From NCBI GenBank assembly GCA_964472295.1, contig CAYYJQ010000009.1, positions 244-64,243 of the forward strand: a stretch of 64,000 bases of DNA. Reading direction: 5' to 3'. Below are positions 3,345-56,530 of this stretch, in pieces (the first letter of the stretch is position 1; every line of letters begins with the position of its first letter). A program made the position numbers and the translations under genes. The notes beneath the pieces were generated by a model that ran no database searches, had not been told where the DNA came from, and worked only from the letters and a program-made list of their open reading frames with translations. The stretch comes from an uncultured Thermodesulfobacteriota bacterium. Lineage in GTDB: Bacteria > Desulfobacterota > GWC2-55-46 > JADFVP01.

Positions 3345-3588
3345 AAAGACAAAAAAAAGAAAAGAAGAAAGGCGGGAGGGAAAGAGGGGGACGGCCTTGC
3401 CTGCAAGGAGACAATTAGGAAAGTCTGATTAATTCAGACTTTCCTGCGGCCCATGGATGTGCCGCCATTTTCAGGGCTGTAAGCCATTGAAAATGTGAGG
3501 GAAAGGGAAACCGCGTTTTTCCTTTCCCATCTCTCCTTAATTCAGGGACGAATTAAGGAGAGGTTCCTTAAGAGACAAAAAATATTCA

Positions 3589-3612: not shown

Positions 3613-3751
3613 GTTTTGATTGGAAAGAGATGTCCTGCTTTACTCCTGGAGGACAGGGCCAAAAAAAAAAGAACTTCGCGGCCCAGGATACTGAGTCAAA
3701 GAAAACCAATCAGAAGATTAAAAACAAGAAAGTAAGACTAAAAAAGACCTA

Positions 3752-3965
3752 TCCCCACATACCCCTTGCGCCCCTTGCGCCCTGCCCTGTCCCCCTGGCC
3801 CGCTGACCGCACAAACCCTGCTATCCCCCTGCACCACTCCCCCCACTCCCTCATGCCCCCCTGCCCCTTTGCCCCCTATGCCTTGTGTGTGCACCCTCCC
3901 TGCCAGTGTGTCCTCCTTTTCCCCCTTTTCCCCCCCTGTCCCCCTTTAGGCCCCCTGGCCCCTAC
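3752..3965. repeat. ~210-bp low-complexity tract that is C-rich on the plus strand, so G-run-rich on the sense strand of the upstream minus gene. It carries GGGGCAAGGGGC-type motifs.
   Basis: Read directly: ccccttgcgccccttgcgccctgccctgtccccctggccc...cccccctgtccccctttaggccccctggcccc. It lies immediately 3' of the PilZ gene stop. No credible ORF. Confidence 0.6.
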
Positions 3966-4555
3966 TTGGCTCTGCCGGCGGCCTTCTTGCCCGACCTCAG
4001 CATCCTTCTCTGCCAGGCGAAGATATAGCGCACTATCCTCTCTCTCACGCGCTCGTCAATATCAACGAACTGTATCCCTACCTTGTATCCACCGTCGATA
4101 TTCTCGCAGGTCCAGACCACCTCGCCCATTACCTCGAGGTCCTGGGTCTGGTCCGGCAGGAAGAGGCGTATAACGAGCCTGTCGCCCTCGGCAAAGTCCT
4201 TGTTGCAGAGTATCTTGAGGCCCCCGCCGCTTATGTCCTCGATGCGGGCCTCGGGTATCTCGAAGCACCTCTCGGCCACGGTCTGGCTCATAAGGGCCTT
4301 GAGCCTCTGGTTTATCTCAAGGAGAAGGGAATACATCTCAGGGTTATCAGAGGAGGATATGGACTCCATCTTTCTTGAAAAGTGCTTGAGTTCGCGTATG
4401 TTCAGTGCGCTGTCCACGATATTGACGCCCTGCCTTGCGACATAGTATACAGGGATGCTGTCCTCAATTCGCACATACTCGCGGCTGTTTGAGATCATAC
4501 CAACCATGTACATTACCTCTTCGTTTACAGCGTCTTTATCTTCAATATCAGCCAT
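3962..4555 (-). CDS. PilZ-domain (c-di-GMP binding) protein, possibly a YcgR/flagellar-brake type.
   Basis: The DISGGG (DxSxGG) PilZ signature is present, within 'EDISGGGLKILCNKDFAEGDRLVIRL'. I chose the start at MADIEDKD (4555) so it does not overlap the upstream gene ending at 4548. It lies at the end of the flagellar cluster. Confidence 0.55.
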   Translation of the reverse strand: MADIEDKDAVNEEVMYMVGMISNSREYVRIEDSIPVYYVARQGVNIVDSALNIRELKHFSRKMESISSSDNPEMYSLLLEINQRLKALMSQTVAERCFEIPEARIEDISGGGLKILCNKDFAEGDRLVIRLFLPDQTQDLEVMGEVVWTCENIDGGYKVGIQFVDIDERVRERIVRYIFAWQRRMLRSGKKAAGRAK

Positions 4556-8570: not shown

Positions 8571-10490
8571 TCACTTCTCGTTAACAACGGCGCGCCCGCC
8601 GCTGTCCGGGCCGTCAACGAGCCCGCGCGCCACTTCGAGTCCGTGACCTATCATGGGCTTAAAGAGAAGGCACATCTTCCTTACCTCGCTGTAAGTGCGA
8701 ATTGTCCTCTCAATGTCCTTCTCGAACTGTATCCTCGCGGACCCGTCCTCTTCCTCGCGGAGGTAGCCCTTCAGGTCATAGGTATACTCCACAAGCGCCT
8801 CCCAGAGGAACGAGACCTTGAGGGCGGCTTTGAAAAGTTTTTTTTCCTTTTTCCTTATCCTCTCTATGGGTCCTGAGAGTTCAAGAGAGAGTCCTTTTTC
8901 GAGAAAGGCCCTCTTAAGCCTTCCCGCCTCTCTGATAATCTCCGAGGAGAGGTTCAGGACAAGCCCCACGTGTTTTTCAAGTCCCCTGAAGGCCTCCAGA
9001 AGACCGCCCGCGTTGACATCGGGGCGCACGGCCCCGGCCTCGTCCAGTATCTTCTCGACTGGAACCGGCCCCTTCAAGTGTTGCTCAATGACCTCGGCAA
9101 GGGGCAGGTGCTCCATGCCCTTTATATAAGCGCCGCCCTCTGTTGAGTTGTAGACGCGGAGGCCGGGAAACTGCTCCTTCAGAAGGACCATGTACCTCTC
9201 GAACCACTGGTGAAATGTCACCCAGTCGTATTTACTGGCAACGGGCCGCCCGTCAAGGCCTGTAAGCCACTGGAGTTTATGGGTCATGGTGCGCCGGTGG
9301 CCTGAGATGTAGTGTTCCCGCACCAGAATAAGCCCCTTCTCCTCGTCTATCTCCACCCTCTGCCTGTCATAGACGCCTCCCTCGGCGTGGCTCTGTCCGT
9401 TCTCAAAGGCAAGGTCCTGACCAATGAAGATAATGGGGTCGCAACCGAATGTGACGCCCATGTCGAACATGGCCGTGGTTACGGAGCCGCCTATGGATAC
9501 AAAGGAACTGCTCCCCCAGAGCCCGGCCTGCTCAAGGCTGAGGGCGATGTAGGGGCTGTAGAAGATGAACTTTCCACGGGCCCGTCTTCTGAACATCTCA
9601 GGGTGAGAGACCTCGGAGAGTATGAGGCGTATATTCTCATCGGCCACGCCTCCGTCGAAGTACTCCTTGAGGTCCACCTTTTCTCCGGCTATGACGGCGT
9701 GGGGGGTAACGCCGTACTTGAGGAGGCTCTTGTAGGCCGTGATGGCCGATACGATAAAGGCCCTGTCCTTTATGCCGGAAAGTAGGGCGGCGTTCTTTTT
9801 TAGCGACGGTCCGGCCCCGACTATAACAAGGGGCACGCCCCTGAGCCTGTTATTCAGGACGCCGACAGATGGATAGGCGGCGAAATTCTCGAGGTTTGCG
9901 AAGTAGTTCTTCAGCCAGTCAAGGCGCGAGTCTATCTCTGTCCTTATGCCGACCTTCTGGGACGTATGGGCGTTCTCGACCTTTATGACAAAGTTACGGA
10001 GTTCCTCGGGAAAGGCAAGGCTGTAGGCAAGGGTATGATAGCCGAGGATATTATCGAGTCCATCGGTAAAACGCTGGACCCAGGCGATGAAGGGGCCTAT
10101 GTAGTTGGCAAGGAATACTCCGGGCAGGGAGAGTTCACGGCTCAGGTCAACTTCCATGAGCACGCCCTTTAGTATCTCCATGGAGGGCTCAAGGACAAAG
10201 ACCTTCTTCATGCCCTTCTTGAGGAGCGTACGGAGGAGATAGGCGCAGCCAAGACCAAAGATGACAACGCAGTCAGGTTTTTTCTTGAGTATTTCCCCTG
10301 CCTGAACCTCGGCCTCTTTCCATGGGGCGTACTGGCTGTTAAATAAACGGCCCCTGTACGAGAGGACTGGTTCGCCCTTCTTTGATACGCCAAGTTTAAC
10401 GGCCTTCTCAATATCAAAGGCCCTCAGCCTCTCGGCAAGGATGCTGTCTTTTTTCGCGATTGCCGTGATGTTTTTTTCAAATATTTTCAT
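8571..10490 (-). CDS. maf: Motility accessory factor (Maf) family protein. Maf proteins act as flagellin nonulosonic-acid glycosyltransferases in Campylobacter and Helicobacter.
   Basis: 639 aa. The central region matches the Maf/DUF115 (MptE-like) fold, with LNNRLRGVPLVIVGAGPSLKKN... and GDxxAAxN-type segments. It is co-located with the pse genes and flagellin. I take the start as the ATG at 10490, with GGAG 6 nt upstream; the track began at a TTG. Confidence 0.6.
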   Translation of the reverse strand: MKIFEKNITAIAKKDSILAERLRAFDIEKAVKLGVSKKGEPVLSYRGRLFNSQYAPWKEAEVQAGEILKKKPDCVVIFGLGCAYLLRTLLKKGMKKVFVLEPSMEILKGVLMEVDLSRELSLPGVFLANYIGPFIAWVQRFTDGLDNILGYHTLAYSLAFPEELRNFVIKVENAHTSQKVGIRTEIDSRLDWLKNYFANLENFAAYPSVGVLNNRLRGVPLVIVGAGPSLKKNAALLSGIKDRAFIVSAITAYKSLLKYGVTPHAVIAGEKVDLKEYFDGGVADENIRLILSEVSHPEMFRRRARGKFIFYSPYIALSLEQAGLWGSSSFVSIGGSVTTAMFDMGVTFGCDPIIFIGQDLAFENGQSHAEGGVYDRQRVEIDEEKGLILVREHYISGHRRTMTHKLQWLTGLDGRPVASKYDWVTFHQWFERYMVLLKEQFPGLRVYNSTEGGAYIKGMEHLPLAEVIEQHLKGPVPVEKILDEAGAVRPDVNAGGLLEAFRGLEKHVGLVLNLSSEIIREAGRLKRAFLEKGLSLELSGPIERIRKKEKKLFKAALKVSFLWEALVEYTYDLKGYLREEEDGSARIQFEKDIERTIRTYSEVRKMCLLFKPMIGHGLEVARGLVDGPDSGGRAVVNEK

Positions 10491-10805
10491 CAATCACTCC
10501 AACATTTTTTTACCGCGACTCAATGCCCCCCTCTTTTAAGCCGCCACAGAGCCAATAAAAAATATCTTCAATCTCTCCGGCATTTTTTTATCCGCGGCTC
10601 AAAGGCCGGTTCCTTTAAGCCGCGCAAGAGCGGGTAAAAAATCTTGTCAATCACTCCAACATTTTTTTATCCGCGGCTCGATGCCCCCCTCTTTTAAGCC
10701 GCCCCAGAGCGGGTAAAAAATCTCGTCAATCACTCCTATGTTTTTTTGCCCGCACCTTGAAGGTCAGTTCGTTTACGCCGCGCCAGACCCAGTAAGAGGT
10801 GTCGT
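10491..10805. repeat. Tandem direct repeat of period 78-79 bp, 3 full copies plus a degenerate 4th. It starts at the maf start codon and extends into the 3' end of the upstream GH57-like gene.
   Basis: The unit is caatcactcc-aacattttttta-ccgcggctc-Natgcccccctcttttaagccgcc-cagagcgggtaaaaaatct-gt. Copies begin at 10491, 10569, 10648 and 10727. Each carries T7-8 and A6-7 runs, and R1 and R3 carry C7 runs. The SD-like GGAGTGATTGA of maf is reiterated in every unit. Confidence 0.8.
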
Positions 10806-17430: not shown

Positions 17431-18642
17431 TTAACTGCCTTGCATAGACCTCTCAAGCCCCACGGCCCCGTTGCCAAAGTTGCCAAAGTTAATAGATACC
17501 CTGCCCCCTTTCCTGCCAAGCGCTGTTATGGCCGCGTTTATATCTTGAAGTTCAAAGGAACGTCCCTCGGCAGTATCGAGTTCCACAAGGCCCTGCTCAT
17601 GAAGCCCCAGTATCCATGGTATGGCAAGAGAGGGGTTTGACGATCCGTATAGCGAGCCCAGGAGTCTCTTCTCAAGGTGAAAGTCCACGGCAGGGAGGGT
17701 GAGGTCCTGAAGGGGGTGGGGCGAGCCCACCATGACTACCGTGCCTCCCCTTCGAGTCGCTTCCAGTGAAGACCGCACCGTCTCACCAGTGGCAACACAG
17801 TCAAATGCAATGTCCACGCCAATGCCGCCTGTAAGTTGCAATATCTCGTTCCTATCAATGCGTTCCGCGTAGTGGTCAACGCCATTCTTATTCCACCTGC
17901 TCCTCTCGCGCTCAACGAGCATGACCATGCCAGCGCCCCTGTGCCTCAGTGCCTCCACAACCGCGCGCCCAACGTTCCCCCCGCCAACAACAAGTGCCCT
18001 CTCACCCCCTCTCATGTATGGAGCGGCTGTGCGGAAGACAGCCCCAAAGGCAGTTACAACAGGGCAGCCCGCAAGGGCGGCCTCTTCTGGACCAAGGCCA
18101 TCCGGGACCTTGACACAGCCCGTCCTGTATACGACGGTATACTCACTGAAGGACGATACGCCGTTAAAATGGAAAATTACGCCCCCGTCTTCGCCCCCTC
18201 CGCTCCCTTTGGCCCCTTTGCCCCCCTTGGCCCCCTTGGCCCCCTTGCCAAGTCCGCCATCTTTAAACCTTGTTGTCCCGTCGGGAAGAAGCCCCCTGCC
18301 CCGTGGCCAGGCAATGGAACTGCATAATTGAGTCTCGCCTCGGGCGCAAAAGTAGCACCTCCCGCAGAAGGCCGCCCAACTGAGGGCCACGCGCTGGCCC
18401 GGCCTTAGGTCATGGACACCAGCGCCTGTCTCCACCACCGTGCCGACTCCCTCGTGGCCCAGGACAAGGGGCATCTCATACCTTGTGTGGCCGCTAATGG
18501 CGTTGAGGTCGCTCCTGCAGAGCCCGGCTGTCTCCATCTTCACAAGGACCTCTTCAGGTCCCGGCGGGGCGAGAGTAATCTCTCTAACCTCAAGGGGCGT
18601 GTCTTTTCTTGTGAGCACTGCGGCCCTTGTCTCTATGGCCAA
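17431..18642 (-). CDS. Zinc-dependent alcohol dehydrogenase (MDR family) carrying an in-frame Gly-Lys-rich insertion (GKGAKGAKGGKGAKGSGGGEDGG).
   Basis: LCRSDLNAISGH...GHEGVGTV...CGRCYFCARGETQLC are ADH Zn motifs. The insertion at 18170-18260 is encoded by the same GGGGCAAGGGGC repeat seen in intergenic tracts. Confidence 0.7.
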   Translation of the reverse strand: MAIETRAAVLTRKDTPLEVREITLAPPGPEEVLVKMETAGLCRSDLNAISGHTRYEMPLVLGHEGVGTVVETGAGVHDLRPGQRVALSWAAFCGRCYFCARGETQLCSSIAWPRGRGLLPDGTTRFKDGGLGKGAKGAKGGKGAKGSGGGEDGGVIFHFNGVSSFSEYTVVYRTGCVKVPDGLGPEEAALAGCPVVTAFGAVFRTAAPYMRGGERALVVGGGNVGRAVVEALRHRGAGMVMLVERERSRWNKNGVDHYAERIDRNEILQLTGGIGVDIAFDCVATGETVRSSLEATRRGGTVVMVGSPHPLQDLTLPAVDFHLEKRLLGSLYGSSNPSLAIPWILGLHEQGLVELDTAEGRSFELQDINAAITALGRKGGRVSINFGNFGNGAVGLERSMQGS

Positions 18643-19995: not shown

Positions 19996-21032
19996 TGGTC
20001 CTCCTTTATGTCCTTTACTCCAAAGATAACGGCCTCGCGTCCTATGCCGTTCTCAGCCATAAGGGCGTACATCTCGTCCTTGAAGGCCCGAAGGCGCTTT
20101 TGGGATAACATGATGTCGAGCCTTGCGCGCATATGGTGGCACCTTCTCCCAAGGGCGTCGTCACCAACGTAGTCCTCTCCCATGAGGAGAAAAAAATCCA
20201 TGGGAAAGGTGGAAGTTGTCTTTAATATTGAGAACCCCGCCCTCTCCATGAGGGCCTTTATTGAGTCAAAGGAGAAATAATTTATATGGTGAGGCACTGC
20301 GACCCAGTAATCTTCGTAACCCCGTCTTTCGCGAAGCGCCTCCTGCACGGGACTGAAGTCATTTGGCACGACAACACAGGCAATGCCGCCGGGTTCAAGG
20401 AGCCCAAAGGCGCCGGAGAGGACCTTTTGGGGGTCGCGCACATGCTCGAGGACCTCGGAGATATGTACGGCGTGGAATGAGCGCCCCTCTTTTTCAAGGG
20501 CCATTGCGTCAAAAAAGCCCCTTATCACCTCCACGCCGCTGGAAAGGGCCGTCCTTGCGGCCACTTTTGATGGCTCCACGCCAAGGCCCTTCCAGCCGCG
20601 CTCCGTGGCGCGTTTCAGAAAAAACCCCGGCCCACAGCCAATATCGAGAAGCCTTCTACTGCCTGCAAAAAGGTTTTTCTCCATGAATTCGAGCCTCTCG
20701 TCAAAGACAGTCTTCCACCACTCTTCGTCCTCGCGGACGCGCTCTATGAAGGCGGGTTTTTCAGAGGTGAAGTACTCGTCCCTGTAAATCCTCTCAAGTT
20801 CTTCTTCCGCTGGAATGGGGTCAATGTGAATAAAACCGCATGGCCGGCAATCAATGACTTCATAGCCGTCCTTTTCCGCAAGGAGAGGCCCTTGATGAAC
20901 GGCCTTGCCATCAAAAAGACGCCCGCTCTCTGCCTCTCTCATGGCCCCCATGCCCTTCTCCCGCCTTGCCTCCGCGCATCCCCTGCCTACCCCGCGCGCG
21001 CCTTTTTCGCACCTTGCCCCACCTGGTCTCAC
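19992..21032 (-). CDS. Class-I SAM-dependent methyltransferase (Methyltransf_23-like) with an N-terminal zinc-ribbon-like CxxC.
   Basis: LLDIGCGPGFFLKRA (motif I) and HAVHISEVLEHVRDP are present. The exact start is uncertain; the first ~30 aa of the ORF may be UTR. Confidence 0.65.
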   Translation of the reverse strand: MRPGGARCEKGARGVGRGCAEARREKGMGAMREAESGRLFDGKAVHQGPLLAEKDGYEVIDCRPCGFIHIDPIPAEEELERIYRDEYFTSEKPAFIERVREDEEWWKTVFDERLEFMEKNLFAGSRRLLDIGCGPGFFLKRATERGWKGLGVEPSKVAARTALSSGVEVIRGFFDAMALEKEGRSFHAVHISEVLEHVRDPQKVLSGAFGLLEPGGIACVVVPNDFSPVQEALRERRGYEDYWVAVPHHINYFSFDSIKALMERAGFSILKTTSTFPMDFFLLMGEDYVGDDALGRRCHHMRARLDIMLSQKRLRAFKDEMYALMAENGIGREAVIFGVKDIKEDQ

Positions 21033-23038: not shown

Positions 23039-24352
23039 TCAGTCCCTGCTCCTGAAGACCTCGCCCACTATCTCTCCGTCGAGAAAAGATGCCGGGCTCG
23101 CGCTCTCGAAGGCGTTTCGCACCACGGAGAGGGCCTCATAAGAGACCTCTATGGTGCGGTCTATATCCACCTCGCTGTGCGAGTAACTCGTAAAGACGGG
23201 CCCGCCAAAGAGCACGCCGCGTTTAACCGTCTCCTGCAAAAAGAGGCTCCTCATGAGGGGGTCGGCCTCGCCAAGGTCGTTCCTGAAGATAAGTCCGGCG
23301 CGCGGGGGCCGGCCGGAGACCTCCATCTCAAGGCCCCACTCGTGGGCCGCGAGCCTCAGGCCCTCGTGGAGCCTTGCGCCCATCTTCCAGATATGCTCAA
23401 TTACAGGTTCCCTCATGATGGTCTCAATAGTGGCCTTTGCCGCGGCAAGCCCGGTGGTCTCTCCAGAGAAGGTCATGGAAAAGAAGACCTCGTCAAGGGA
23501 GTTCATGAACTCGCGCTTGCCCACAAGGGCCGAGACAGCCATGCCGTTGGCCATGCCCTTTCCAAAGCATGACAAATCCGGCTCCACGCCAAAGAGTTCC
23601 TGCGCCCCGCCAAGGGAGTACCTGAACCCCGTGACCATCTCGTCAAGGATAAAGAGGGCGCCGTTCTTCCTGCAGAGGAGCGCCGCGTCCTGAAGAAAGT
23701 TGCGCTTTGTCCTGAGGTTTATGACAGGATCTGCGCCCGGAACCTCCATTATGACGCAGGCTATCTGCCCGTAGAACTCATCAAATAGGGTCTCGAGGGT
23801 CTCGAGCCTGTTGTACTCGAAGGCGTGTATGAGTTCTCTGTTGAAATCAGGTATGCCGCGGTTACGCGGCGTTGTAACGGCGTACCAGTCCTGACACCCG
23901 TGATACCCTGAATAGGCTATATGCTCTCTACCGGTGCAGGCGCGGGCCAGGCGCACCGCCGCGCTCGTCACATCAGAGCCGTTCTTAGCGAAGCGGACCA
24001 TCTCGGCAGAGGGTATGACCTCTGTAAGTAATTCGGCGAGTTCCACCTCAAGGGGGTGCATGAGCGTGAAGGTCGTCCCGAGGCCAAGCCTGTCCATTAC
24101 CGCCTCCATGACGGGCCTGTACCCATAGCCAAGGAGTATGGGACCAAGTGCCATGGGGTAATCAATGTACTCGTTTCCGTCAACATCCCAGACGTGGGCC
24201 CCCCTGCCGCGCTCAAGATACCTGGGCGTCACGCCGAAGACAAACTGGTCGGGCCCCTTGCTAAGTGTCTGCGTGCCCGCTGGTATGACCCTCGCGGCCC
24301 TTGCCCAGAGGGCCTCAGATGCCGGGTGTATCTTCTTCCTCATAAGCGCCAT
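23039..24352 (-). CDS. Class-III (PLP) aminotransferase, glutamate-1-semialdehyde aminomutase-like.
   Basis: 437 aa. ...RVIPAGTQTLSKGPDQFVFGVTPRYLERGRGAHVWDVDGNEYIDY... is the GSA-AT family N-terminal pattern, and a 'DEMVTGFRYSLGGAQE' PLP-lysine region follows. Confidence 0.7.
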   Translation of the reverse strand: MALMRKKIHPASEALWARAARVIPAGTQTLSKGPDQFVFGVTPRYLERGRGAHVWDVDGNEYIDYPMALGPILLGYGYRPVMEAVMDRLGLGTTFTLMHPLEVELAELLTEVIPSAEMVRFAKNGSDVTSAAVRLARACTGREHIAYSGYHGCQDWYAVTTPRNRGIPDFNRELIHAFEYNRLETLETLFDEFYGQIACVIMEVPGADPVINLRTKRNFLQDAALLCRKNGALFILDEMVTGFRYSLGGAQELFGVEPDLSCFGKGMANGMAVSALVGKREFMNSLDEVFFSMTFSGETTGLAAAKATIETIMREPVIEHIWKMGARLHEGLRLAAHEWGLEMEVSGRPPRAGLIFRNDLGEADPLMRSLFLQETVKRGVLFGGPVFTSYSHSEVDIDRTIEVSYEALSVVRNAFESASPASFLDGEIVGEVFRSRD

Positions 24353-24417
24353 TGGGTAATCCTCCTATTACTTGTCCTTGAGCGCGTCCGGGTGCCTAAT
24401 GACCGGACCGTAAGCCC

Positions 24418-25440
24418 TCACCGGTGGGGAAGCCCTGAAAAGGGCATGTCCCCGGCAAGGGATCTAAGATAGCCCTCGTTTCTGATGGTCGATGAATTTA
24501 TCTTTAATAATTCAGGTATTCTGTCAATAAGTTCAAGTATCTCCTCCATATAGAAGACCCTCAGCGGACAGGCAAAACTCTGGAAGACCTTACGGGCAAA
24601 CTCAAGGTCGCGGCCATCGTCCACTGTCCAGCGCATATGGGAGAGGTCTTCTATATTAGGAATGGAACGCACTCTGAACCTCTGCCTGTTTTTCCATATA
24701 TGGGGCGTGACGTGCTCTCTCTCCGAGGGCAGAATTGCTTCTTTAAAGGCACGGTCAAGTGCATGGAAGGTGAAGACCTCTGTGTCGAGGCCATCTGGAA
24801 AGGTTCCGTCAAGGCCCATGTAATCGAGGTCAGGGGCGTTGAGGAACTCCTCGACAACCCTCTCCACAAGTATGGGGTCTATCATGGGGCAATCGGCTGT
24901 AACGCGCACCACGGTTCGTGCTCCATGCTCTTTTGCCGCGCCATGATAGCGGGAGAGCACATCAGAGAGCGCACCCCTGTAAGAGGCCACGCCCTCAGAT
25001 GAGCACCAGCGCGAGATAATGTCATCGGAAGAGTGTGTGCTCGTGGCGACCACTATTTCATCAATGGCCCTTACATACCTCAGGCGGTTTATAACGTGCC
25101 AGAGCATGGGCCGTCCGCAGATTTCCCGCATCACCTTTCCGGGAAGCCTCGTGGAACTCATCCTTGCCTGCACTATGGCGACAACGGGCCTTCGCGGTGT
25201 TTGCGCGCCAAAGGGCCTCTTCGCGCCCTCCGCGCCTCGCGTCCCCCTTCTTGCATACCTCTCTCCCCCTGTCTCCCTATCTCCCATCTCCCCCCTTGGC
25301 CCCGTCGCCCCCATCGCCCCCGTCGCCCCCTCTCCCCCTGTGCCACTCGCCCCCTCTGCGATCTTCAACCCCTTTGCCCCCATCGCCCTCTCTCCCCTTG
25401 GCCCCCCTGGGCGCATGTCTCTCAACATAGGTCCTCCCAC
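24418..25440 (-). CDS. pseF: CMP-pseudaminic acid synthetase / acylneuraminate cytidylyltransferase (PseF-like) with an N-terminal collagen-like Gly-X-Y extension.
   Basis: The core reads VVAIVQARMSSTRLPGKVMREICGRPMLWHVI..., the CMP-NeuAc-synthetase family motif. At least 35-90 aa of Gly-rich sequence precede it (GAKGLKIAEGASGTGGEGATGAMGATGPRGEMGDRETGGERYARRGTRGAEGAKRPFG). The true start lies somewhere between 25440 and the MGDRE codon. Confidence 0.65.
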   Translation of the reverse strand: MGGPMLRDMRPGGPRGERAMGAKGLKIAEGASGTGGEGATGAMGATGPRGEMGDRETGGERYARRGTRGAEGAKRPFGAQTPRRPVVAIVQARMSSTRLPGKVMREICGRPMLWHVINRLRYVRAIDEIVVATSTHSSDDIISRWCSSEGVASYRGALSDVLSRYHGAAKEHGARTVVRVTADCPMIDPILVERVVEEFLNAPDLDYMGLDGTFPDGLDTEVFTFHALDRAFKEAILPSEREHVTPHIWKNRQRFRVRSIPNIEDLSHMRWTVDDGRDLEFARKVFQSFACPLRVFYMEEILELIDRIPELLKINSSTIRNEGYLRSLAGDMPFSGLPHR

Positions 25441-26462
25441 ATAAGGGGCATGTCTCTTGGCAGGTCCCGCGCCGCCCTCTTGCCGATGACGCTCTTCATC
25501 TCGCCCGGCCTTAGTCCAAGGGCGTGGCGCACCACCTTGAGCATGTCCCCGGTTATAAGCGTGTCTTTCTTTATGTTCACATCGGCATATACGCCGCGCC
25601 TCGCCCCTGTCCTCTCGCGCGCCTCCTCTGTCGAGGGCTCCTTTACAGGGCTCCCGAGCGCGGCCTCGAGGTTACGGACCTCGCGCGACATGAGGGCGAA
25701 CTCCCCTGGCTCCATGGAATGGCCATGGTCAGGGCCATCCATGGACCTTGAAAGGGTAAGGTGTTTTTCAACTATGGCCCCGCCCAAGGCAACGGCCCCG
25801 AGGGCCACGGCCATGCCGGGCGTGTGGTCCGAGATTCCCACAGGACAGCGGAACCTTTTCGAGAGCGTCTTCATGGCGCGGAGGTTTACGTCGCTGAACC
25901 TTGGCGGATAGAGGGCCGTGCACTGGAGAAGGGCGACTTCCGTAGCCCCTGCACCCTGCAAGATGGAGGCGGCCTCCTCGACCTCTTCCATGAAGGAAGC
26001 CCCGGTGGAGAGGATTACGGGCCTGCCAAGGGAGCCGACAAGACGCAGGAGGGGTTCGTTGGTAATGTCGCCCGAGGCTATCTTGAAGGCCTTTATGCCG
26101 GCGAGCCCAAGGAGTTCGGCGGCACGCGGGCTGAAGGGCGTAGAGAGAAAATCCATGCCAAGGGACTCGGCATGTTCTTTCAGTTCCGGGTGCCAGGGCC
26201 AGGGCAGGCTCAGCCGCTCAAGTGCGCCATAGGCGGGGTTCTCTTCCCAGCCGCCCCTGTTATCGGGCCTCAGGGGGTTGAGGAGGCCGTGGGCCGTGAA
26301 GGACTGGAACTTCACGGCATCGGCCCCGGCCTTGGCCGCGGCGCTTATGAGGTCCAACGCCGTCTCAAGGCTCCCGTTGTGGTTGGAGCCGGCCTCGGCT
26401 ATGATATAGGCCCTGTGCCCCCTGCCAAGACGCCTCTTTCCTATGGTCAAGACCTTCTTCAT
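25422..26462 (-). CDS. pseI: Pseudaminic acid synthase (NeuB family) with a C-terminal SAF domain.
   Basis: AYIIAEAGSNHNGSLETALDLISAAAKAGADAVKFQ is the NeuB signature. I chose the start at MKKVLTIGKRR (26462), which overlaps the pseC stop as ATGA. The track's 83-aa N-terminal extension is rejected. Confidence 0.8.
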   Translation of the reverse strand: MKKVLTIGKRRLGRGHRAYIIAEAGSNHNGSLETALDLISAAAKAGADAVKFQSFTAHGLLNPLRPDNRGGWEENPAYGALERLSLPWPWHPELKEHAESLGMDFLSTPFSPRAAELLGLAGIKAFKIASGDITNEPLLRLVGSLGRPVILSTGASFMEEVEEAASILQGAGATEVALLQCTALYPPRFSDVNLRAMKTLSKRFRCPVGISDHTPGMAVALGAVALGGAIVEKHLTLSRSMDGPDHGHSMEPGEFALMSREVRNLEAALGSPVKEPSTEEARERTGARRGVYADVNIKKDTLITGDMLKVVRHALGLRPGEMKSVIGKRAARDLPRDMPLMWEDLC

Positions 26463-27673
26463 CCTGCTCTCTTCTCCTTGAGTCTCATGGACCCCCGAAG
26501 GGTCTTTATTACGGCATTTGCCACGAACCTTACGTCCTGATCTGAAAGGGACGGGTATATGGGGAGGCTCGCCTCGGAGGCGTAAAAGGCCTCTGCCGAG
26601 GGATATTCTCCGCCGCGGAAACCAAAATTGGCCCTGTAATAGGGCTGGAGATGCACGGGTATGTAATGGACCTGAAGGGCTATACCCTCGCTTAGCATGG
26701 AGTTGAACCACCCGGCCTTGTCAATGCCGAGCCTCGCGAAGTCCACTCGCAGGGGGTAGAGGTGCCATGCGCTCCCGCTTCCATGGGGCGCGGAAGGGAT
26801 GGCGAGCATCTCGCCATGACAGGCGAAGAGCCTCGTGTAGAGGGCGGCAATCTCTCTACGCCTCTCCATGAAGGAGCCGATCTTTCTGAGTTGGCTGAGA
26901 CCCAGGGCGCACTGTATGTCTGAAATCCTGTAATTAAAGCCCAGGGAACGCATCTCATACTTCCAGGGCGCCCAGCGTTCGCCCTGTTGAGGCGTCTTTG
27001 TAATCCCATGAGAGCGGATTTCAAGAAGTTTCCTGTAGAGGTCCTCGTCATTGGTGGTTACGGCCCCTCCCTCGCCCGTTGTGATGGACTTTACGGGGTG
27101 GAAACTGAAGACCGTCATGTCGGAATAATCACAGCCGCCAACCATGCGCTTTCTGCCCCTTGAGTCCAGAAAGGACGCCCCAAGGGCGTGGCAGGCGTCT
27201 TCTATTACAACGGCCCCGGACCTTGAGGCCATGGCCCCAAAGGTCTCCATGTCAAGGGGCGCGCCGCCGTAATGCACGGGGATAACGGCGCTCACACCGC
27301 CCTTGAGAGCCTCGGCTGTCTTCTCAAGGTCCATGACCCCTGTCTCCTCAACAACGTCCACGAAAAGAGGAGTCGCGCCCGTGTAGAGCGCGGCGTTGGG
27401 AGTGGCCACAAAGGTATTGGGCGTTGTAAGGACTCTTTTACCCCCTTCAAGGCCCGCGGCAAGACAGGCCATGTGCAGGGCCGCCGTGCCGCTTGAGCAG
27501 GCAACTGCGTATCTCGCGCCAACGTACGCCGACAGCGCCTCCTCAAAGGCCCCTACAAGGGGTCCCTGCGTAAGATACTGGGACTCAAGGACCTCAAGTA
27601 CAGACCTTGTATCTTCCACGCCTATTGTCTGACCTCCGTAAGCGATAGGTCTTTTTCTTCTCACCCCTGTCAA
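26459..27673 (-). CDS. pseC: DegT/DnrJ/EryC1-family PLP aminotransferase, PseC-like (UDP-4-amino-4,6-dideoxy-AltNAc aminotransferase).
   Basis: ...GQTIGVEDTRSVLEVLESQYLTQGPLVGAFEEALSAYVGARYAVACSSGTAALHMA... is the typical DegT N-terminus. 404 aa. The start may be slightly downstream of 27673, since it overlaps the pseB 3' end. Confidence 0.75.
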   Translation of the reverse strand: MTGVRRKRPIAYGGQTIGVEDTRSVLEVLESQYLTQGPLVGAFEEALSAYVGARYAVACSSGTAALHMACLAAGLEGGKRVLTTPNTFVATPNAALYTGATPLFVDVVEETGVMDLEKTAEALKGGVSAVIPVHYGGAPLDMETFGAMASRSGAVVIEDACHALGASFLDSRGRKRMVGGCDYSDMTVFSFHPVKSITTGEGGAVTTNDEDLYRKLLEIRSHGITKTPQQGERWAPWKYEMRSLGFNYRISDIQCALGLSQLRKIGSFMERRREIAALYTRLFACHGEMLAIPSAPHGSGSAWHLYPLRVDFARLGIDKAGWFNSMLSEGIALQVHYIPVHLQPYYRANFGFRGGEYPSAEAFYASEASLPIYPSLSDQDVRFVANAVIKTLRGSMRLKEKRAG

Positions 27674-28640
27674 ACTCCCTTATTATCTTGTGAAGTTGAA
27701 ATCTGTCGAGTTTCATCTCATTGGTATCGCTGGAATAGTAAAAGCCCTCGGGCACACGCTCGCCGCCAACGTCTTTCTCCGCGCCCCACCAGGGAAAGTG
27801 GGGCTGAACAACATAGTGGTCATCAAACTCCAGAGTGAGCCTGCCGTCTTCCCGTGATATGAGGACCTCGTGGAGTTTCTCACCGGGCCTGATGCCTATG
27901 AGGTTGAAGGAGCACTCTGGAGAGATGGCCCGGGCAACGTCGGCGATGGAAGAACTCGCTATCTTTGGGACGAATATCTCGCCGCCGCGCATCCGCTCAA
28001 GGGACTTGATGACAAAGATGGCGCTCTCATCAAGGGTTATCCAGAAACGGGTCATGCGCATATCCGTAATGGGCATGACGCCCGCCTTTTTATTCTTCAG
28101 AAAGAGGGGGATGACGCTTCCACGGCTTCCGGCCACGTTGCCGTAGCGCACGACGGAAAAGCGTGTGGGCTTTGGACCGGCGTAGGAGTTGCCGGAAATG
28201 AAGAGTTTATCGGAACAGAGTTTCGTGGCGCCGTAGAGGTTCACGGGGTTTACGGCCTTGTCCGTGGAGAGGGCCACGACCTTCCTCACGCCAGTGTCCA
28301 TGGATACGTCGATTATGTTCTTTGCCCCGAGGATATTTGTCTTTATGACCTCAAAGGGGTTGTACTCCGCGGCAGGGACCTGCTTCAGGGCCGCGGCGTG
28401 TATGACGTAATCAACACCCTCGAAGGCCCTGTAAAGACGCTCCTTGTCGCGAACATCGCCGAGAAAGAACCTTAGAAGCGAACTCCCGAACCGTGCGTTC
28501 ATCTCGTACTGCTTGAGCTCGTCGCGGCTCAAGATGATGAGTTTCTTCGGTCTGTGCCTCGACAGTATTATCTCCGTGAGTTTGTTTCCAAGTGAACCTG
28601 TGCCGCCGGTTATTAAGATGGTCTTGTCTTCAAGATACAT
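27594..28640 (-). CDS. pseB: UDP-GlcNAc 4,6-dehydratase (inverting), PseB-like.
   Basis: MYLEDKTILITGGTGSLGNKL...YGATKLCSDKLF has the Rossmann motif plus the YxxxK catalytic pair. I chose the start at MYLEDK because the track's upstream extension would overlap the sigma-54 promoter. Confidence 0.8.
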   Translation of the reverse strand: MYLEDKTILITGGTGSLGNKLTEIILSRHRPKKLIILSRDELKQYEMNARFGSSLLRFFLGDVRDKERLYRAFEGVDYVIHAAALKQVPAAEYNPFEVIKTNILGAKNIIDVSMDTGVRKVVALSTDKAVNPVNLYGATKLCSDKLFISGNSYAGPKPTRFSVVRYGNVAGSRGSVIPLFLKNKKAGVMPITDMRMTRFWITLDESAIFVIKSLERMRGGEIFVPKIASSSIADVARAISPECSFNLIGIRPGEKLHEVLISREDGRLTLEFDDHYVVQPHFPWWGAEKDVGGERVPEGFYYSSDTNEMKLDRFQLHKIIREFDRGEKKKTYRLRRSDNRRGRYKVCT

Positions 28641-28672
28641 GGGCAATCCTCCTTTTCTCCCATACTTGTAAT

Positions 28673-28687
28673 GCAACTTGTATGCCA
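28673..28687 (-). promoter_or_regulatory. Sigma-54 promoter of the pseB-led glycosylation operon.
   Basis: The minus strand reads TGGCATACAAGTTGCA, which is TGGCAC-N5-TTGCA with one mismatch. It ends ~33 nt upstream of the pseB ATG. Confidence 0.55.
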
Positions 28688-28930
28688 TGGAAAATCAAGG
28701 GGCCATTAAGGCGCAACACCCCCCTGAAGGCGCGTAGCCTCGGGAAAAAATGCGGTGTGACAAAAAAATGACAGGATATTGGAGTGTAAAAAAAAGATTA
28801 ACGAGAAAGGGAAAGCGGAAAAGAATCAACTGCCGTGGATGTAACCTGCCAGCGGCCAATGGCCGGTGTAAGGGAAAAACCCCCTTGAGAGAGACCTTGT
28901 AGAGGAGATAAAAAAAGGGCGTAAAACAAA

Positions 28931-28970
28931 TCCCCGCCCCCCCTGCCCCTACTTGCCCCCTAAGCCCCCT
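28931..28970. repeat. G-run tract on the minus sense strand (GGGGCTTAGGGGGCAAGTAGGGGCAGGGGGGGCGGGG) around the fliW stop codon, overlapping its last ~11 nt.
   Basis: Read directly. Same motif family as 3752-3965. Confidence 0.55.
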
Positions 28971-29457
28971 TTGCGGCGTCCTCACGGGCCGCGTCAAGAC
29001 CCGCAAGTTCCACGGCAAACCGGCACTCGTATTCGTCTCTGTCTATTATGCACTGCATGGCGAGCATGGACCCGGTATTCAGCAAGACCGGCGCCTTGAG
29101 GTTCAGGCTCACGCTACCCTTTACCTCCGAGGCCGATACCATGACAAAGACCACAATGGAATCAACTGAAGAGGCCCCAAGGTCTTGAAGATAATTATCC
29201 CTCAAGGGCACGGTGTACCCTGACTTGAAGAGACGGGGATATGTGAGAAGAAAGGCAACCCCGGGGTCCTCAATGGACTGAAGCCACTTGAAGACCCCGT
29301 CACTGTCATGATCAAGAAGGACAAAATCCCTCAGACCCTCGAAACCGGGCATGCCGCGAACAAGCCGTATCACCTTCGCGCCCTCCACCCGTATCACCCC
29401 AAAACGCGAAGACTCGAACTCAATCATCCCTGCGGAGATCTCATCTCTTTCCCTCAT
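28960..29457 (-). CDS. fliW: Flagellar assembly factor FliW, the CsrA antagonist.
   Basis: 165 aa of DUF180/FliW type (MIEFESSRFGVIRVEG...GMPGFEGLRDFVLL...). It is adjacent to csrA. AAGGAGA lies 9 nt upstream of the ATG at 29457. Confidence 0.75.
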   Translation of the reverse strand: MRERDEISAGMIEFESSRFGVIRVEGAKVIRLVRGMPGFEGLRDFVLLDHDSDGVFKWLQSIEDPGVAFLLTYPRLFKSGYTVPLRDNYLQDLGASSVDSIVVFVMVSASEVKGSVSLNLKAPVLLNTGSMLAMQCIIDRDEYECRFAVELAGLDAAREDAAKGA

Positions 29458-29746: not shown

Positions 29747-29862
29747 TTTTTGATTGAAGCGCATTGTCCCTCTGGTTTTTTGGAACCTGTAGCATAACAG
29801 GCACTTTTCAAAAGTAGAAACATCGCCAGAGAAAACCAATATTCAAAGGTCCTATTTCTCTG

Positions 29863-29942
29863 CCGCCCCCCCACTCAAATCCCCTGTCGCCCCCCCTTTG
29901 GTCCCCCCCATGCCCTCTTGGCCCCCATGCCCCCATGGCCCC
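29863..29942. repeat. G-run tract on the minus sense strand immediately 3' of the flgL stop.
   Basis: On the plus strand: ccgcccccccactcaaatcccctgtcgccccccctttggtcccccccatgccctcttggcccccatgcccccatggcccc. Confidence 0.55.
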
Positions 29943-30823
29943 TAAAGGAAATCAAGGATACTCTGGCGTAGTATCTTTGCCGAGGAGTTCATGGCCGCCT
30001 GAAGGGCCGTGTTTCCAAGTTGAAGTTCGGATATGACCTTCGTAATATCCGCGTCCTCCATATTGGATATGCTTATCCTGAGGTCCAGTTTAAACCTTGA
30101 TATGGCGTCAGCGGCGCTCTTTAGACGAAGCGTCCTTCCGCCCACATCTGAAATTGCGTTGGATATCTGCGTCGAGGCGGTCTCGAGCGATGTTATGGAG
30201 GCCCTGATGCCTGCCGTGTCATTTGCGTCAAGGGCGGTTATCATGTCCGAGACTATCTGAAATACGTCCACACCTCCTCCCGTGCCCTTGAAGACCTTGC
30301 CTCCGTTCATGCCAAGGGTCATGGAACTCTGGTTATTGATGTTTATTACCCTCTCGCCGCTGTCTCCGTTATAGGCGCCCGTGGAGTCAAAGGGCGGCGT
30401 ATCGGTCTTGTTGCCGGCAAAGATGTGCCCGCCCTCGAAACTCGTATCAGCAAGGGTGACAAGGCTTCCAAAGAGGCTCCTGGCCTCTGTCGAGGCGGCC
30501 TTCCTCGACTCGGGGTTGGCCGTCTCCGTGGCGTTGAGCACGGCGAGTTCCTTGAGACGGCCAAGTATGCCGTTACTCTCCGAGAGGGCGTTCTCCGCCA
30601 CACCGAGATAGGACTGGCCAGAGCCTATGTTCCTCTCATACTGCGTAAGTCTCGAGAGGAAGGACTTTGAGTCAAGGAGTTTGCCCACCCGGGCAGGGTC
30701 GTCCGAGGGGGTCGAGAGTTTCTTTCCCGTGGAGAGTTGGCTCTGTGTCTTGAAAAGGGCCTGGTACTGCCGCGTGATGTCGTTCATGTAGGACCGGAAA
30801 AGTATATTACTGGTTACACGCAC
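29942..30823 (-). CDS. flgL: Flagellar hook-associated protein 3 (FlgL).
   Basis: 293 aa. MRVTSNILFRSYMNDITRQYQALFKTQSQLSTGKKLSTPSDDP is the flagellin-like N-terminus typical of FlgL. It follows flgK. Confidence 0.75.
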   Translation of the reverse strand: MRVTSNILFRSYMNDITRQYQALFKTQSQLSTGKKLSTPSDDPARVGKLLDSKSFLSRLTQYERNIGSGQSYLGVAENALSESNGILGRLKELAVLNATETANPESRKAASTEARSLFGSLVTLADTSFEGGHIFAGNKTDTPPFDSTGAYNGDSGERVININNQSSMTLGMNGGKVFKGTGGGVDVFQIVSDMITALDANDTAGIRASITSLETASTQISNAISDVGGRTLRLKSAADAISRFKLDLRISISNMEDADITKVISELQLGNTALQAAMNSSAKILRQSILDFL

Positions 30824-44648: not shown

Positions 44649-44733
44649 GCCCCATCTCTTTTTACGCCCCTTTGCCCCTTTGTCCCATTGCCCCATATAC
44701 CCCTACACCCCCTTGCCCCTTCTTGCCCCCCTG
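44649..44733. repeat. G-run tract (GGGGCAAGGGG-type) on the minus sense strand immediately 3' of the narK stop.
   Basis: cgccccatctctttttacgcccctttgcccctttgtcccattgccccatatacccctacacccccttgccccttcttgcccccctgcc. Confidence 0.55.
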
Positions 44734-44741
44734 CCGCCAGA

Positions 44742-46303: not shown

Positions 46304-46717
46304 TTACGAAGGCCCCATGATAAAGAGATGACACCCCGCATTCTTTACAAGGTAGGCGCTTATACTCTTCTGGAAAACAGACTCCAGGGCGCTCCTTTCC
46401 TTACGCGCCACGATCACGATGTCCGGAGACTTCTTTTCTATGGCCTTGAGTATCATCTTTCTCGGCTCGCCGGTAGCCACCATGACGTCGACATCAAGGC
46501 CATTATTCGAGACCCATTCCGCCGCCTTTCTTAGCGCGGCGCTCTTTTCCGCTTCATACTCCTTGGTAATAGTCTCATCCTCGAGGCTCGCGTCAAGGAC
46601 ATCCTCGGCCACAGAGACGAGTATCAACTCGGGCTTGAGTTCTTTAAAAAGATTAACAGCCCGCTCCAACGCCGCTTGCGCACTATCAGTCCCATCGTGA
46701 CAGTACATGATTTTCAT
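46304..46717 (-). CDS. Universal stress protein (UspA family).
   Basis: 137 aa. MKIMYCHDGTDSAQAALERAV...DVDVMVATGEPRKMILKAIEKKSPDIVIVA is the Usp ATP-binding fold. Confidence 0.75.
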   Translation of the reverse strand: MKIMYCHDGTDSAQAALERAVNLFKELKPELILVSVAEDVLDASLEDETITKEYEAEKSAALRKAAEWVSNNGLDVDVMVATGEPRKMILKAIEKKSPDIVIVARKERSALESVFQKSISAYLVKNAGCHLFIMGPS

Positions 46718-46831
46718 TAGGACACCTCCATAGTTCCCGTTAGTAACAACTTGCCGCCGAGTTCAATCAGGAAAAACCAAAATCCGCGAAACATGGAAAT
46801 GAAAAAGGACTACTAAAAAAAACCTCTAACC

Positions 46832-46930
46832 GTACCCCCTACGTATCCCCCTCCTCCCCACACTCCCCTTCTTACCAATCGCCAACCTTCAATTCGGCCC
46901 CTTCCCAACCCTTGCGCACCCCCCTTCCGC
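46832..46930. repeat. C-rich low-complexity tract on the plus strand (G-runs on the minus strand) upstream of usp.
   Basis: ccgtaccccctacgtatccccctcctccccacactccccttcttacc...ggccccttcccaacccttgcgcaccccccttccgc. Confidence 0.45.
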
Positions 46931-49462: not shown

Positions 49463-49587
49463 CGTCGCCTCCTCAAGTATGGCCTGAATTGCCGCCGCAA
49501 GGCTTGAGCGCCGGTTTTGTATTGACTGTCAACGGGTTAAGGCAAACCATCAAACCACTTAATAAGGGGCCTCTCCTGAGAAATCAT

Positions 49588-49650
49588 GCCCCACCCGCGC
49601 CTAACCCCCTCCCACCTTGCCGCCTTTACCGGCCCATGGAATACCCCCCC
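49588..49650. repeat. G-run tract on the minus sense strand immediately 3' of the MidA-like gene.
   Basis: gccccacccgcgcctaaccccctcccaccttgccgcctttaccggcccatggaataccccccccta. Confidence 0.5.
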
Positions 49651-50781
49651 CTAAAGGTAGCGGCTCATGTCACGGAAGGAAAAACCCTTCAATTGAGCGG
49701 CCTCTTCGCCGCCCTTCTCCTGCACAAGGACCTTGAAGGTATCACCCATGCCGCCAGGGGATATAAGGCTGGCGATGGCCCTGTTATGCTCTATCTTCTC
49801 GTAGTCCTTGAGCCCAGCGGCCTCTGTCTCTATTAGTTCCTCAAGGACACCGAGGCCAAGGAGAAAATTCTTCTGAGTCGTAAAACCAGAGAGCCTGAGC
49901 CCAGCCTCATTGCCGCAACGAACAAGGCGCGTAAAATCAATGTGGCTCGTAATGTCCTGCCTGCCTATCTTCTCATAGGGCTCGAAATTGGGCCTGTGGC
50001 GATAGTGGCACATGAGCGTCCCGCCTATCCTGTCAGGGCCGTATAGCTCGCGGGCAGGCAGACCGTAATCTATGGTGATTATAAAGCCCCTCTTGAGTAT
50101 CTCCGCGGCCCGCTCTATCCAGGGGCCGGCCATAAGGTTTACCTCGGCCCTCTGGCCCTCAAGAAGGGTTATGCCGGCATCTCTGAAGTAGTCCGAAAGG
50201 GCTGGGTCCGAGAGCTCACCCTCCACGTCCTTGAGGCGCCCGTACTCACTGCCAACATAAATTTCCCTGAGTTCCCCTTCGCTGAAACGCAGGCGGTGGA
50301 AGGGGAAACTGTCAATCAGTTCGTTGGAGATGATTACGCCGTGCTCCAGGCTCGCGGCCAACGGAAGGTCGCCCTGCCAGGTGACCTTCTCTCTCCTCTC
50401 CCCTTGAAGCCCAGGGTTCCTCTCTACAAGGACAACGCTAATGGCCTCATAAAGCCGAGGGGCAGTCTCCTTGATGGTATCGAGTATCCCCGTGGCCAGG
50501 TGACCCCTTCCTGCCCCGGCCTCTATAAGGACAAAATCATCTGGCGCGCCAAGGGTCTCCCACATCTCCATGATCGAGGCGGCCATAACCCTTGAAAATA
50601 CAGGGCTTACATCTATGCTCGTAATATAATCGCCGCCCTCGCCCCATGGGCCGCGGCTTGATGTGTAATAACCGCCATCTGGCCAGTAGAGCGCAACTTC
50701 CATGAACTCCGCAAAGGTAATGGGGCCTTTTTTCTCAATCCTTCTAAGAATCTCGGCCCTTGGGCCGTCCTTCTCACTCAT
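49651..50781 (-). CDS. MidA/NDUFAF7-family (DUF185) SAM-dependent methyltransferase.
   Basis: ITFAEFMEVALYWPDGGYYTS and FVLIEAGAGRGHLATGIL match the MidA family N-terminal and SAM-binding motifs. 376 aa. Confidence 0.75.
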   Translation of the reverse strand: MSEKDGPRAEILRRIEKKGPITFAEFMEVALYWPDGGYYTSSRGPWGEGGDYITSIDVSPVFSRVMAASIMEMWETLGAPDDFVLIEAGAGRGHLATGILDTIKETAPRLYEAISVVLVERNPGLQGERREKVTWQGDLPLAASLEHGVIISNELIDSFPFHRLRFSEGELREIYVGSEYGRLKDVEGELSDPALSDYFRDAGITLLEGQRAEVNLMAGPWIERAAEILKRGFIITIDYGLPARELYGPDRIGGTLMCHYRHRPNFEPYEKIGRQDITSHIDFTRLVRCGNEAGLRLSGFTTQKNFLLGLGVLEELIETEAAGLKDYEKIEHNRAIASLISPGGMGDTFKVLVQEKGGEEAAQLKGFSFRDMSRYL

Positions 50782-53369: not shown

Positions 53370-53406
53370 AAAATAAGAAGAAAGAAGAGATAAGAAAAGA
53401 TATTTC

Positions 53407-56446: not shown

Positions 56447-56530
56447 GAGAAGAAAGAAGAGAAGAAAAAGATTGAGGAGGGCGGGCTCCGCCCGCAAAAA
56501 GAAAAAACAAAAGAAAAAGAAAGAGAATTT

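Follow-up and report, generated by a model that had tools for sequence, protein, structure and literature searches.

A G-rich simple repeat in the leader of a cytidylyltransferase gene from an uncultured Thermodesulfobacteriota bacterium: a probable translated passenger tail

The stretch of DNA considered here (64,000 nucleotides of contig CAYYJQ010000009.1 from an uncultured Thermodesulfobacteriota bacterium, referred to below as the window) encodes on its minus strand a cytidylyltransferase whose conserved catalytic core is preceded, in the same open reading frame (ORF, 24418..25440), by a long segment rich in glycine. The question which this locus raises is whether this segment forms a part of the protein and, if so, what it represents. 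The initial annotation described it as a collagen-like Gly-X-Y extension on the cytidine monophosphate (CMP)-sugar synthetase PseF, which could be either a repeat insertion co-opted as a tether or the outcome of a mis-called start codon. The results described below argue instead that the leader is probably an in-frame expansion of a lineage-specific, G-quadruplex-prone simple repeat, which would be translated as a disordered tail and carried by the enzyme as a passenger that is not collagen-like. The features of the locus are as follows.

24418..25185, minus strand: cytidylyltransferase core (CTP_transf_3, SpsF-like), based on Pfam, homologues and AlphaFold2
25186..25428, minus strand: 81-codon leader (MLRDMRPGG...AQTPRRP), with no in-frame stop between the ATG and the core
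25219..25415, minus strand: G-rich low-complexity tract, with 57% G and 14% C on the sense strand
25285..25287, minus strand: last in-frame ATG before the core, from the start-codon scan, giving a minimum tail of 34 residues
25300..25338, minus strand: 9-nucleotide (nt) tandem repeat CCCCGTCGC (GGGGCGAYG on the sense strand), 4.4 copies with 87% matches, by Tandem Repeats Finder
25422..25424, minus strand: TGA stop of the neuB/pseI-like gene, from the ORF and Pfam
25426..25438, minus strand: Shine-Dalgarno sequence GGGAGGA (25438-25432) and coupled ATG (25428-25426), from motif comparison

Start codon and reading frame of the leader

When read from the GTG at position 25440, the ORF encodes 340 residues and shows a match to CTP_transf_3 (PF02348) from residue 87, with a score of 103.3 bits against a cut-off of 22.6. 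The core exhibits 72-76% identity to its nearest orthologues, the residues Q87, A88, R89, S92, R94, L95 and K98 of the catalytic motif are invariant in an alignment of 36 homologues (the window protein included), and in the AlphaFold2 model based on this alignment the predicted local distance difference test (pLDDT) score of the core exceeds 90. The nearest solved structure to the core is PDB 6oew (6oew_A, E=6e-36 over residues 3-239). The Gly-rich extension ahead of this core is real, and the peptide quoted for it in the initial annotation is contained exactly in the translation of the ORF.

The codons available for initiation place a limit on how short this extension can be. The in-frame starts 5' of VVAIVQAR are GTG 25440, ATG 25428, TTG 25425, ATG 25416, ATG 25383, TTG 25368, ATG 25314 and ATG 25287, and between the last of these and the first Val of the core (25185) none of the codons ATG, GTG, TTG, CTG, ATT, ATC or ATA is found in frame. 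A non-AUG start beside the core was rejected as a candidate due to this absence of in-frame near-cognate codons, and a GTG or TTG immediately before RPVVAIV, which would have rendered the Gly-rich segment untranslated, does not exist, as no start codon of any kind is present in the 34 codons before the core. The later in-frame starts, viz. GTG 25173 and ATG 25161, would delete the beta-1 strand or the invariant QAR motif. Thus, the enzyme needs a leader of at least 34 residues and, if it keeps the motif QAR..S.RLPGK, then at least 34 residues of the tail are translated. The earlier statement that every in-frame start upstream of the core adds an extension to it therefore stands, whereas the range of 35-95 added residues given with it is corrected to 34-85; the leader is in this range rich in Gly, Arg and Ala.

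The arrangement seen in relatives, whose genomes are metagenome-assembled genomes of uncultured Thermodesulfobacteriota/Deltaproteobacteria (those from the contig scan being at 72% identity or less), indicates which of these starts is ancestral. In L005, L006, L007, L009 and L010, the cytidylyltransferase ATG lies inside the motif tGGGAGGAcctATG, just before or overlapping the neuB stop, and this motif, which comprises the Shine-Dalgarno sequence and the ATG, is identical in the window; in remoter loci the same start arrangement is present with gaggacatATG. The corresponding ATG 25428 in the window is in frame with the core, and between both there is about 170-200 nt of G-rich repeat. Across 25186..25428 this frame alone is open, each of the other two frames containing stops besides that of neuB itself, and a promoter/terminator scan of 24300-29100 revealed no such site between neuB and the core. 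Based on these sequence comparisons, we infer that initiation occurs at ATG 25428, and the long start call is probably the one to be used in annotation. As the window retains both the ancestral Shine-Dalgarno sequence and its in-frame ATG unaltered, the suggestion of a mis-called start hiding a non-AUG codon is not borne out. The leader peptide IAEGASGTGGEGATGAMGATGPR would be diagnostic of initiation upstream of ATG 25314.

The leaders of the orthologues are much shorter, consisting of 9-12 residues in L005-L010, L036 and L037, and of 20-29 residues in the closest sub-clade (P0002-P0005), versus 81 residues in the window. They lack the tract and show no sequence conservation, and the window tail is common to none of them; hence, the possibility that the extension is conserved in orthologues is contradicted by the alignment, where only unrelated leaders of 9-29 residues are seen. 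In P0003, P0007 and P0019 a proximal Met is present (MRPVV), and the residue at this position in the window protein is Arg. Among the best 120 homologues, the only proteins longer than 296 residues are the window protein (335 residues) and two others, P0014 and P0087, which are fusion proteins or longer proteins. When metagenomes were scanned for an exact 27-mer from the core, 0 matches were obtained, and a degenerate clade-wide pattern gave 3 loci, 2 of which had readable leaders of 9-10 residues. As the leaders in relatives are variable and short and the one found here is long and G-rich, the interval from the conserved start to AGG-CCC-GTT (R-P-V) constitutes an expandable spacer.

The G-rich tract, the tail and their counterparts in the window

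On the sense strand, the tract at 25219..25415 follows the neuB TGA at a distance of 7 nt, and 13 runs of at least four G are present in the leader. Besides the 9-nt unit, a looser 8-nt period (67% matches) with the core GGGGC was detected by Tandem Repeats Finder. The repeat at 25300-25338 encodes GAT-GAM-GAT-GPR, and the Gly-X-Y register of the tail is present because the 9-nt DNA repeat is read in frame as GGG-GCG-AYG. G-quadruplex motifs matching a regular expression are found within the tract at 25265-25338 and 25369-25407, and ViennaRNA with quadruplex energies predicts three quadruplexes in the leader RNA, with a minimum free energy of -123 kcal/mol versus -66 kcal/mol without them. A 122.8-kb JGI contig and a Logan assembly of SRR9849936 both carry the tract with 100% identity at the DNA level, which makes an assembly artefact unlikely.

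The 81-residue tail contains 21 Gly (26%), 13 Arg (16%), 11 Ala (14%) and 6 Pro. The number of Gly in an i, i+3 register is 7, versus a mean of 2.9 in shuffled sequences (P~0.002), and thus the interrupted Gly-X-Y periodicity that was noted earlier is genuine; however, it is short, comprising only 6-7 triplets in a stretch (GAT GAM GAT GPR GEM GDR) with a single Pro. Further, 62% of the Gly codons in the tail are GGG, whereas in 16 long genes GGG accounts for 23% and GGC for 49% of them, and the composition of the tail is therefore dictated by the DNA repeat rather than by selection at the protein level. A Pfam hmmscan of the isolated tail at E<=10 identified no family, Collagen included. The long uninterrupted Gly-X-Y array of collagen (PF01391) is lacking, the longest run being 7 Gly versus a model of 20 triplets, and Pro/charge-rich X and Y positions together with an adjacent trimerisation domain are likewise not seen. 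In the AlphaFold2 model, residues 1-78 have pLDDT values of about 41-46, with about 44 for the tail, and no secondary structure, and the tail joins strand beta-1 of the transferase directly, with no extra domain. By eye, a signal or targeting peptide was also rejected, as the tail has no hydrophobic segment. It is most likely that the tail is a passenger, tolerated at an N-terminus that is permissive and little conserved, and neither collagen-like nor a scaffold.

The repeat in the leader is not confined to this gene, and the earlier claims that the extension consists of the same repeat as noncoding tracts, and that it is an insertion made of such low-complexity DNA, are well founded. With at most one mismatch, GGGGCNNNNGGGGC has 48 matches in the window versus 16.7 expected, a number reached in 0 of 100 shuffles, the minus strand accounting for 43 of these matches. 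An identical 14-mer, GGGGCCAAGGGGGG, occurs at 25290 and 18221, another, GGGGGCAAAGGGGC, is shared by 18212 and the noncoding position 3863, and GGGGCGATGGGGGC at 25307 is one base apart from the noncoding GGGGCCATGGGGGC at 29929. A composition scan revealed nine clusters that are C-rich on the plus strand (i.e. G-rich on the minus strand), with 25219-25415 among them, and none that are G-rich on the plus strand. Tracts found elsewhere in the window by composition and, where a stop codon is named, by its position are listed below.

3746..3970, minus strand: noncoding G tract beginning at the TAG stop of a PilZ-domain gene
18176-18249, minus strand: G tract in a Zn-dehydrogenase gene
28920..28986, minus strand: G tract overlapping the fliW TAG stop
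29856..29943, minus strand: G tract between a flagellin-family gene and csrA, beginning at the TAG stop of the former
44650..44741, minus strand: G tract downstream of an MFS transporter gene, beginning about 8 nt past its TAA stop
46819-46924, minus strand: G tract in the presumed 5' leader of gene 46304..46717, the sole G tract not following a stop codon
47390..47478, minus strand: G tract downstream of an FAD-oxidoreductase gene, beginning 3 nt past its TGA stop
49584..49650, minus strand: G tract beginning at the TAG stop of gene 49651..50781

Three further C-rich regions, picked out by their composition, were rejected as clean members of this group, viz. 16481-16538, which translates as ordinary Gly-rich dehydrogenase coding sequence; 17936-18013, which is dehydrogenase coding region and appears by eye to be an ordinary GxGxxG nucleotide-binding segment; and 20933-21004, which is a less repetitive G/R-rich leader. 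A near-consensus promoter-like site (TTGACA-16-TATAAT) was noticed by eye on the minus strand at about 47129-47102, followed by the 46819-46924 tract and a run of eight T.

Most of the tracts begin at, or at most 10 nt from, a sense-strand stop codon, and the genes which precede them are unrelated in function (PilZ, FliW, flagellin-family, MFS, FAD-oxidoreductase). The 40 nt following the stop contain at least 50% G in 7 of about 40 minus-strand genes, in comparison to 1.8% of minus-strand windows (binomial P~8e-6), and GGG directly follows the stop in 10 of 49 long ORFs, where 1.0 is expected (stops at 3962, 5320, 28960, 29942, 30837, 49651 and others). The minus strand of the window has 14 canonical G-quadruplex motifs and the plus strand has 2, the mean of block shuffles being 3.2 and their maximum 8; quadruplexes are predicted in every tract by ViennaRNA with quadruplex energies. 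A gathering-threshold scan of the whole window against Rfam gave no match, and no known RNA family lies over any tract. The share of TAG among stops is 18 of 49 in the window versus 2 of 18 in L001, and TAGGGG is a common word within G tracts, which may thus be supplying or capturing stop codons. Genes on the plus strand are followed not by G tracts but by A/G purine-rich tracts (AAAAAGAAGA, AAGAGAAGAAA), seen at 3345-3385, 53348-53402 and 56445-56527, and it may be generally the case that the sense strand is rich in purines after stops.

In the relatives, post-stop G tracts are rare (2 of 155 genes) and located at other spacers, and in the spacer between flgL and csrA a tract is present in the window and L010 only. 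L010 has at 5615-5744 its own G-rich tract directly after the stop of the flagellin-family gene, and L007 (12128-12242) and L008 (17483-17525) have their own G-rich tracts directly after a dehydrogenase stop. The unit sequences of these tracts differ, which indicates independent gains across the clade, and on sequence comparison the distribution of post-stop tracts points to repeated, lineage-specific gains.

A second tract in the window is also read as protein. In the Zn-alcohol dehydrogenase encoded in the same gene cluster (17431..18642, minus strand), comparison of the G tract with orthologues reveals the following feature.

18193..18258, minus strand: in-frame Gly/Lys/Ala insertion of 22 residues, GGLGKGAKGAKGGKGAKGSGGG, in a loop between ...TTRF and IFHFNGVSSFSEYTV

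At this position the window protein has 22 extra residues, L001 has 14 (which are different and Gly/Arg-rich) and L034 has about 70, whereas L005-L013 have none. Translation has no way around an insertion in the middle of a conserved enzyme, and this genome, like its sister lineages, therefore tolerates translated tracts as Gly-rich surface insertions. The leaders of a methyltransferase gene in the window, L001 and L035 similarly behave like translated tracts. This gene (19992-21032, minus strand) is located downstream in the cluster and has a variable Gly/Arg-rich N-terminal leader; its orthologue in L035 (4514-5659) encodes 381 residues versus 330 in L001 and L034, about 50 of them being extra low-complexity residues. 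The Zn-alcohol dehydrogenase of the window also extends 16 residues past the ...INFG C-terminus of its relatives.

Taken together, the following course of events can be envisaged. The tract would be one copy of a sense-strand G-rich class sited mostly directly after stop codons, and it probably originated by slippage of 8-9-nt units. Because the cytidylyltransferase start overlaps the neuB stop, a tract following this stop is inside coding sequence and would fall in the 5' coding end of the next gene, where its length happens to preserve the frame of the conserved start with the core. Initiation would then take place at ATG 25428, with some ribosomes perhaps using internal ATGs as far as 25287, and the enzyme would carry an N-terminal tail of 81 residues, or 34 at the minimum, that is disordered and rich in Gly, Arg and Ala; a permissive N-terminus would tolerate this tail, which would be neutral.

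Alternative readings of the tract

Several considerations weigh against this account. Translation of the leader is deduced from sequence, and an open frame is by itself weak evidence, as the chance of being in frame is 1 in 3 and G-rich DNA is poor in stops. Many Shine-Dalgarno-like words and three in-frame ATGs are present within the tract, and shorter isoforms are possible; the stable RNA G-quadruplexes that are predicted just past the start might block elongation from 25428. Because it is not conserved, the tail is assumed to be neutral, and the three assemblies in which the tract is identical are possibly from overlapping samples. If the tract is mainly a nucleic-acid element, viz. an RNA or DNA G-quadruplex or a Shine-Dalgarno-like spacer, then productive translation would start at ATG 25287, 25314 or 25383, the tail would comprise 34-66 residues and the rest would be a regulatory leader tuning the downstream genes. 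The quadruplexes and folding energy predicted for the leader RNA, the G-rich Shine-Dalgarno-like words preceding the in-frame ATGs in the repeat unit GGGGCGATG and the strong sense-strand enrichment of tracts directly after stops are all consistent with such a role, as are the reports that analogous repeats occur within 50 bp after stops and that quadruplexes in E. coli affect expression according to their position (Rehm et al. 2015, PMC4692102). However, the conserved coupled start, with its Shine-Dalgarno sequence, is undisrupted and in frame, so that ribosomes initiating there would read through the tract, the spacing from the G-rich word to the internal ATG is short (0-3 nt), the published analogues are without a demonstrated function (PMC4692102), and the sporadic gain of a tract at an orthologous spacer (in the window and L010 only) fits a mutational origin better than conserved regulation. 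An explanation of this kind is thus unlikely, although it merits consideration. For the tract class in general, the candidate nucleic-acid roles are a G-quadruplex or Shine-Dalgarno-like hold on ribosomes, protection from exonucleases and avoidance of Rho loading. A broader proposal, which is speculative and somewhat more doubtful again, is that the G tracts are functional lineage-specific G-quadruplex elements, located post-stop on the sense strand, which set the relative expression of genes within operons (by ribosome hand-over, mRNA stability or Rho resistance), with the copy between neuB and the cytidylyltransferase doubling as a protein tail that perhaps modulates the enzyme.

It is very unlikely that the Gly-rich tail has been co-opted as a collagen-like or flexible tether which localises or oligomerises the CMP-sugar synthetase, as was earlier put forward. 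The Gly register exceeds that of shuffles, the tail, which is in frame, is the same in all three assemblies, and the gene belongs to a flagellar glycosylation cluster, where localisation could matter. However, the registered triplets are few and the repeat is interrupted and poor in Pro, no Pfam family was recovered for the tail, its AlphaFold2 model is unstructured and no orthologue shares it; further, its register comes from a 9-nt DNA repeat that noncoding DNA also has and this, along with the GGG bias, indicates an origin at the level of DNA. Even less credence, i.e. next to none, can be given to the possibility that the locus is a decaying pseudogene or an assembly artefact from which nothing meaningful is translated. 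G-rich low-complexity DNA is indeed difficult to sequence and assemble, and the Met of the MRPVV sequence in some homologues is Arg here; against this, the NCBI, JGI and Logan assemblies agree exactly in this DNA, the core ORF is unbroken, retains every invariant residue and has a high identity to orthologues, and the operon genes flanking the cytidylyltransferase are intact.

Gene neighbourhood and comparison with known systems

The cytidylyltransferase is part of a flagellar glycosylation cluster with the order flagellin-family gene, csrA region, fliW, pseB-like gene, DegT, neuB and cytidylyltransferase, followed by further genes. The rest of the cluster encodes a class-III aminotransferase, a GFO/IDH/MocA oxidoreductase, methyltransferases and Zn-dehydrogenases, and the gene order is identical in the relatives L001-L004. 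The neighbours identified by Pfam are given below.

From 25422, minus strand: NeuB and SAF domains, neuB/pseI-like gene immediately upstream of the cytidylyltransferase
26459..27673, directly upstream in the cluster: DegT aminotransferase
27594..28688, directly upstream in the cluster: Polysacc_synt_2, pseB-like

Homologues of pseB, pseC and pseI are thus adjacent to the gene, as in a PseF cluster. However, a search of the protein against NCBIfam found no model at or above its own cut-off, and the PseF equivalog TIGR03584 scored 26.1 bits versus a cut-off of 205.7, with the match limited to residues 87-137. Due to this, the enzyme is to be regarded as an SpsF-like CTP_transf_3 cytidylyltransferase in a Pse-like cluster; the PseF label given to it earlier is unverified, and this assignment of its substrate on the basis of sequence is unsupported by TIGR03584.

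Elsewhere in the window, a 79-nt unit is repeated in tandem 3.8 times at 10490-10787 (minus strand), between two minus-strand genes. Each unit contains GGAGTGATTGA, a T-run, the hairpin GCGGCTTAAAAGAGGGGGGCATCGAGCCGC and an A-run, and the final one provides the Shine-Dalgarno sequence and ATG of the gene 8571..10493; it appears that a 5' leader with its ribosome-binding site has been duplicated several times in this region.

The leader described here illustrates a way in which new low-complexity segments of bacterial proteins can arise from simple-repeat DNA: as the sequence is read here, a normally harmless post-stop tract would enter the next gene through a gene overlap and then be translated. 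It also identifies an uncultured Thermodesulfobacteriota lineage with unusually many G-quadruplex-prone post-stop tracts, and neither the collagen-like nor the PseF label should be propagated in annotations. The case is a clear but modest example, and the G-tract family is mildly novel for the phylum.

In comparison with known systems, the enzyme resembles the SpsF-like CTP_transf_3 proteins (cousins of PseF, NeuA and KdsB) in the match of its core and in its location next to pseB-, pseC- and neuB-like genes, and it differs from this family in the length of its leader, which is unmatched among the best 120 homologues. With the bacterial collagen-like proteins (Scl1/Scl2, BclA; PF01391) the tail shares a Gly at every third residue over a short stretch. 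However, real bacterial collagen-like proteins have dozens of Gly-X-Y triplets, whereas here there are 6-7, versus 20 in the Pfam model, with no evident trimerisation domain and no conservation. In the mycobacterial PE_PGRS proteins, polymorphic GC-rich repeats are translated into Gly/Ala-rich, length-variable low-complexity protein, and these proteins form a dedicated family, surface-located or secreted, in which PGRS is the large C-terminal domain and a PE domain is also present. The window similarly has a GC-rich DNA repeat read as Gly/Ala-rich low-complexity protein, but in this case it is a short tail on an ordinary cytoplasmic enzyme and no homology is implied.

The closest published parallel to the window tracts is provided by the G-quadruplex-forming repeats of Xanthomonas and Nostoc (Rehm et al. 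2015, PMC4692102). These have perfect heptamer units (GGGNATC or GGGGA(C/T)T) with a preference for four units, they are located on the coding strand in the first 50 bp after stops, between co-oriented ORFs, and they vary between relatives and have no assigned function (PMC4692102). Evidence that simple repeats are enriched near gene N-termini is also cited in that work, and a bacteria-wide survey has reported that the placement of G-quadruplex motifs is non-random (PMC6539912). The tracts of the window differ from the Xanthomonas and Nostoc repeats in having an imperfect 8-9-nt unit (GGGGC-N3-4) and no perfect heptamer, in their length of 40-220 nt, in their uncultured Thermodesulfobacteriota host and in being read in frame at two sites. 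However, like these repeats, they are G-rich, with at least four G-runs and short loops, and predicted to be quadruplex-competent, the tract in the leader is on the coding strand, at the junction of two co-oriented ORFs, and follows a stop by much less than 50 bp, and they are tied to no gene function and vary in length and sequence among relatives at the same spacer. The window thus extends the pattern known from Xanthomonas and Nostoc.

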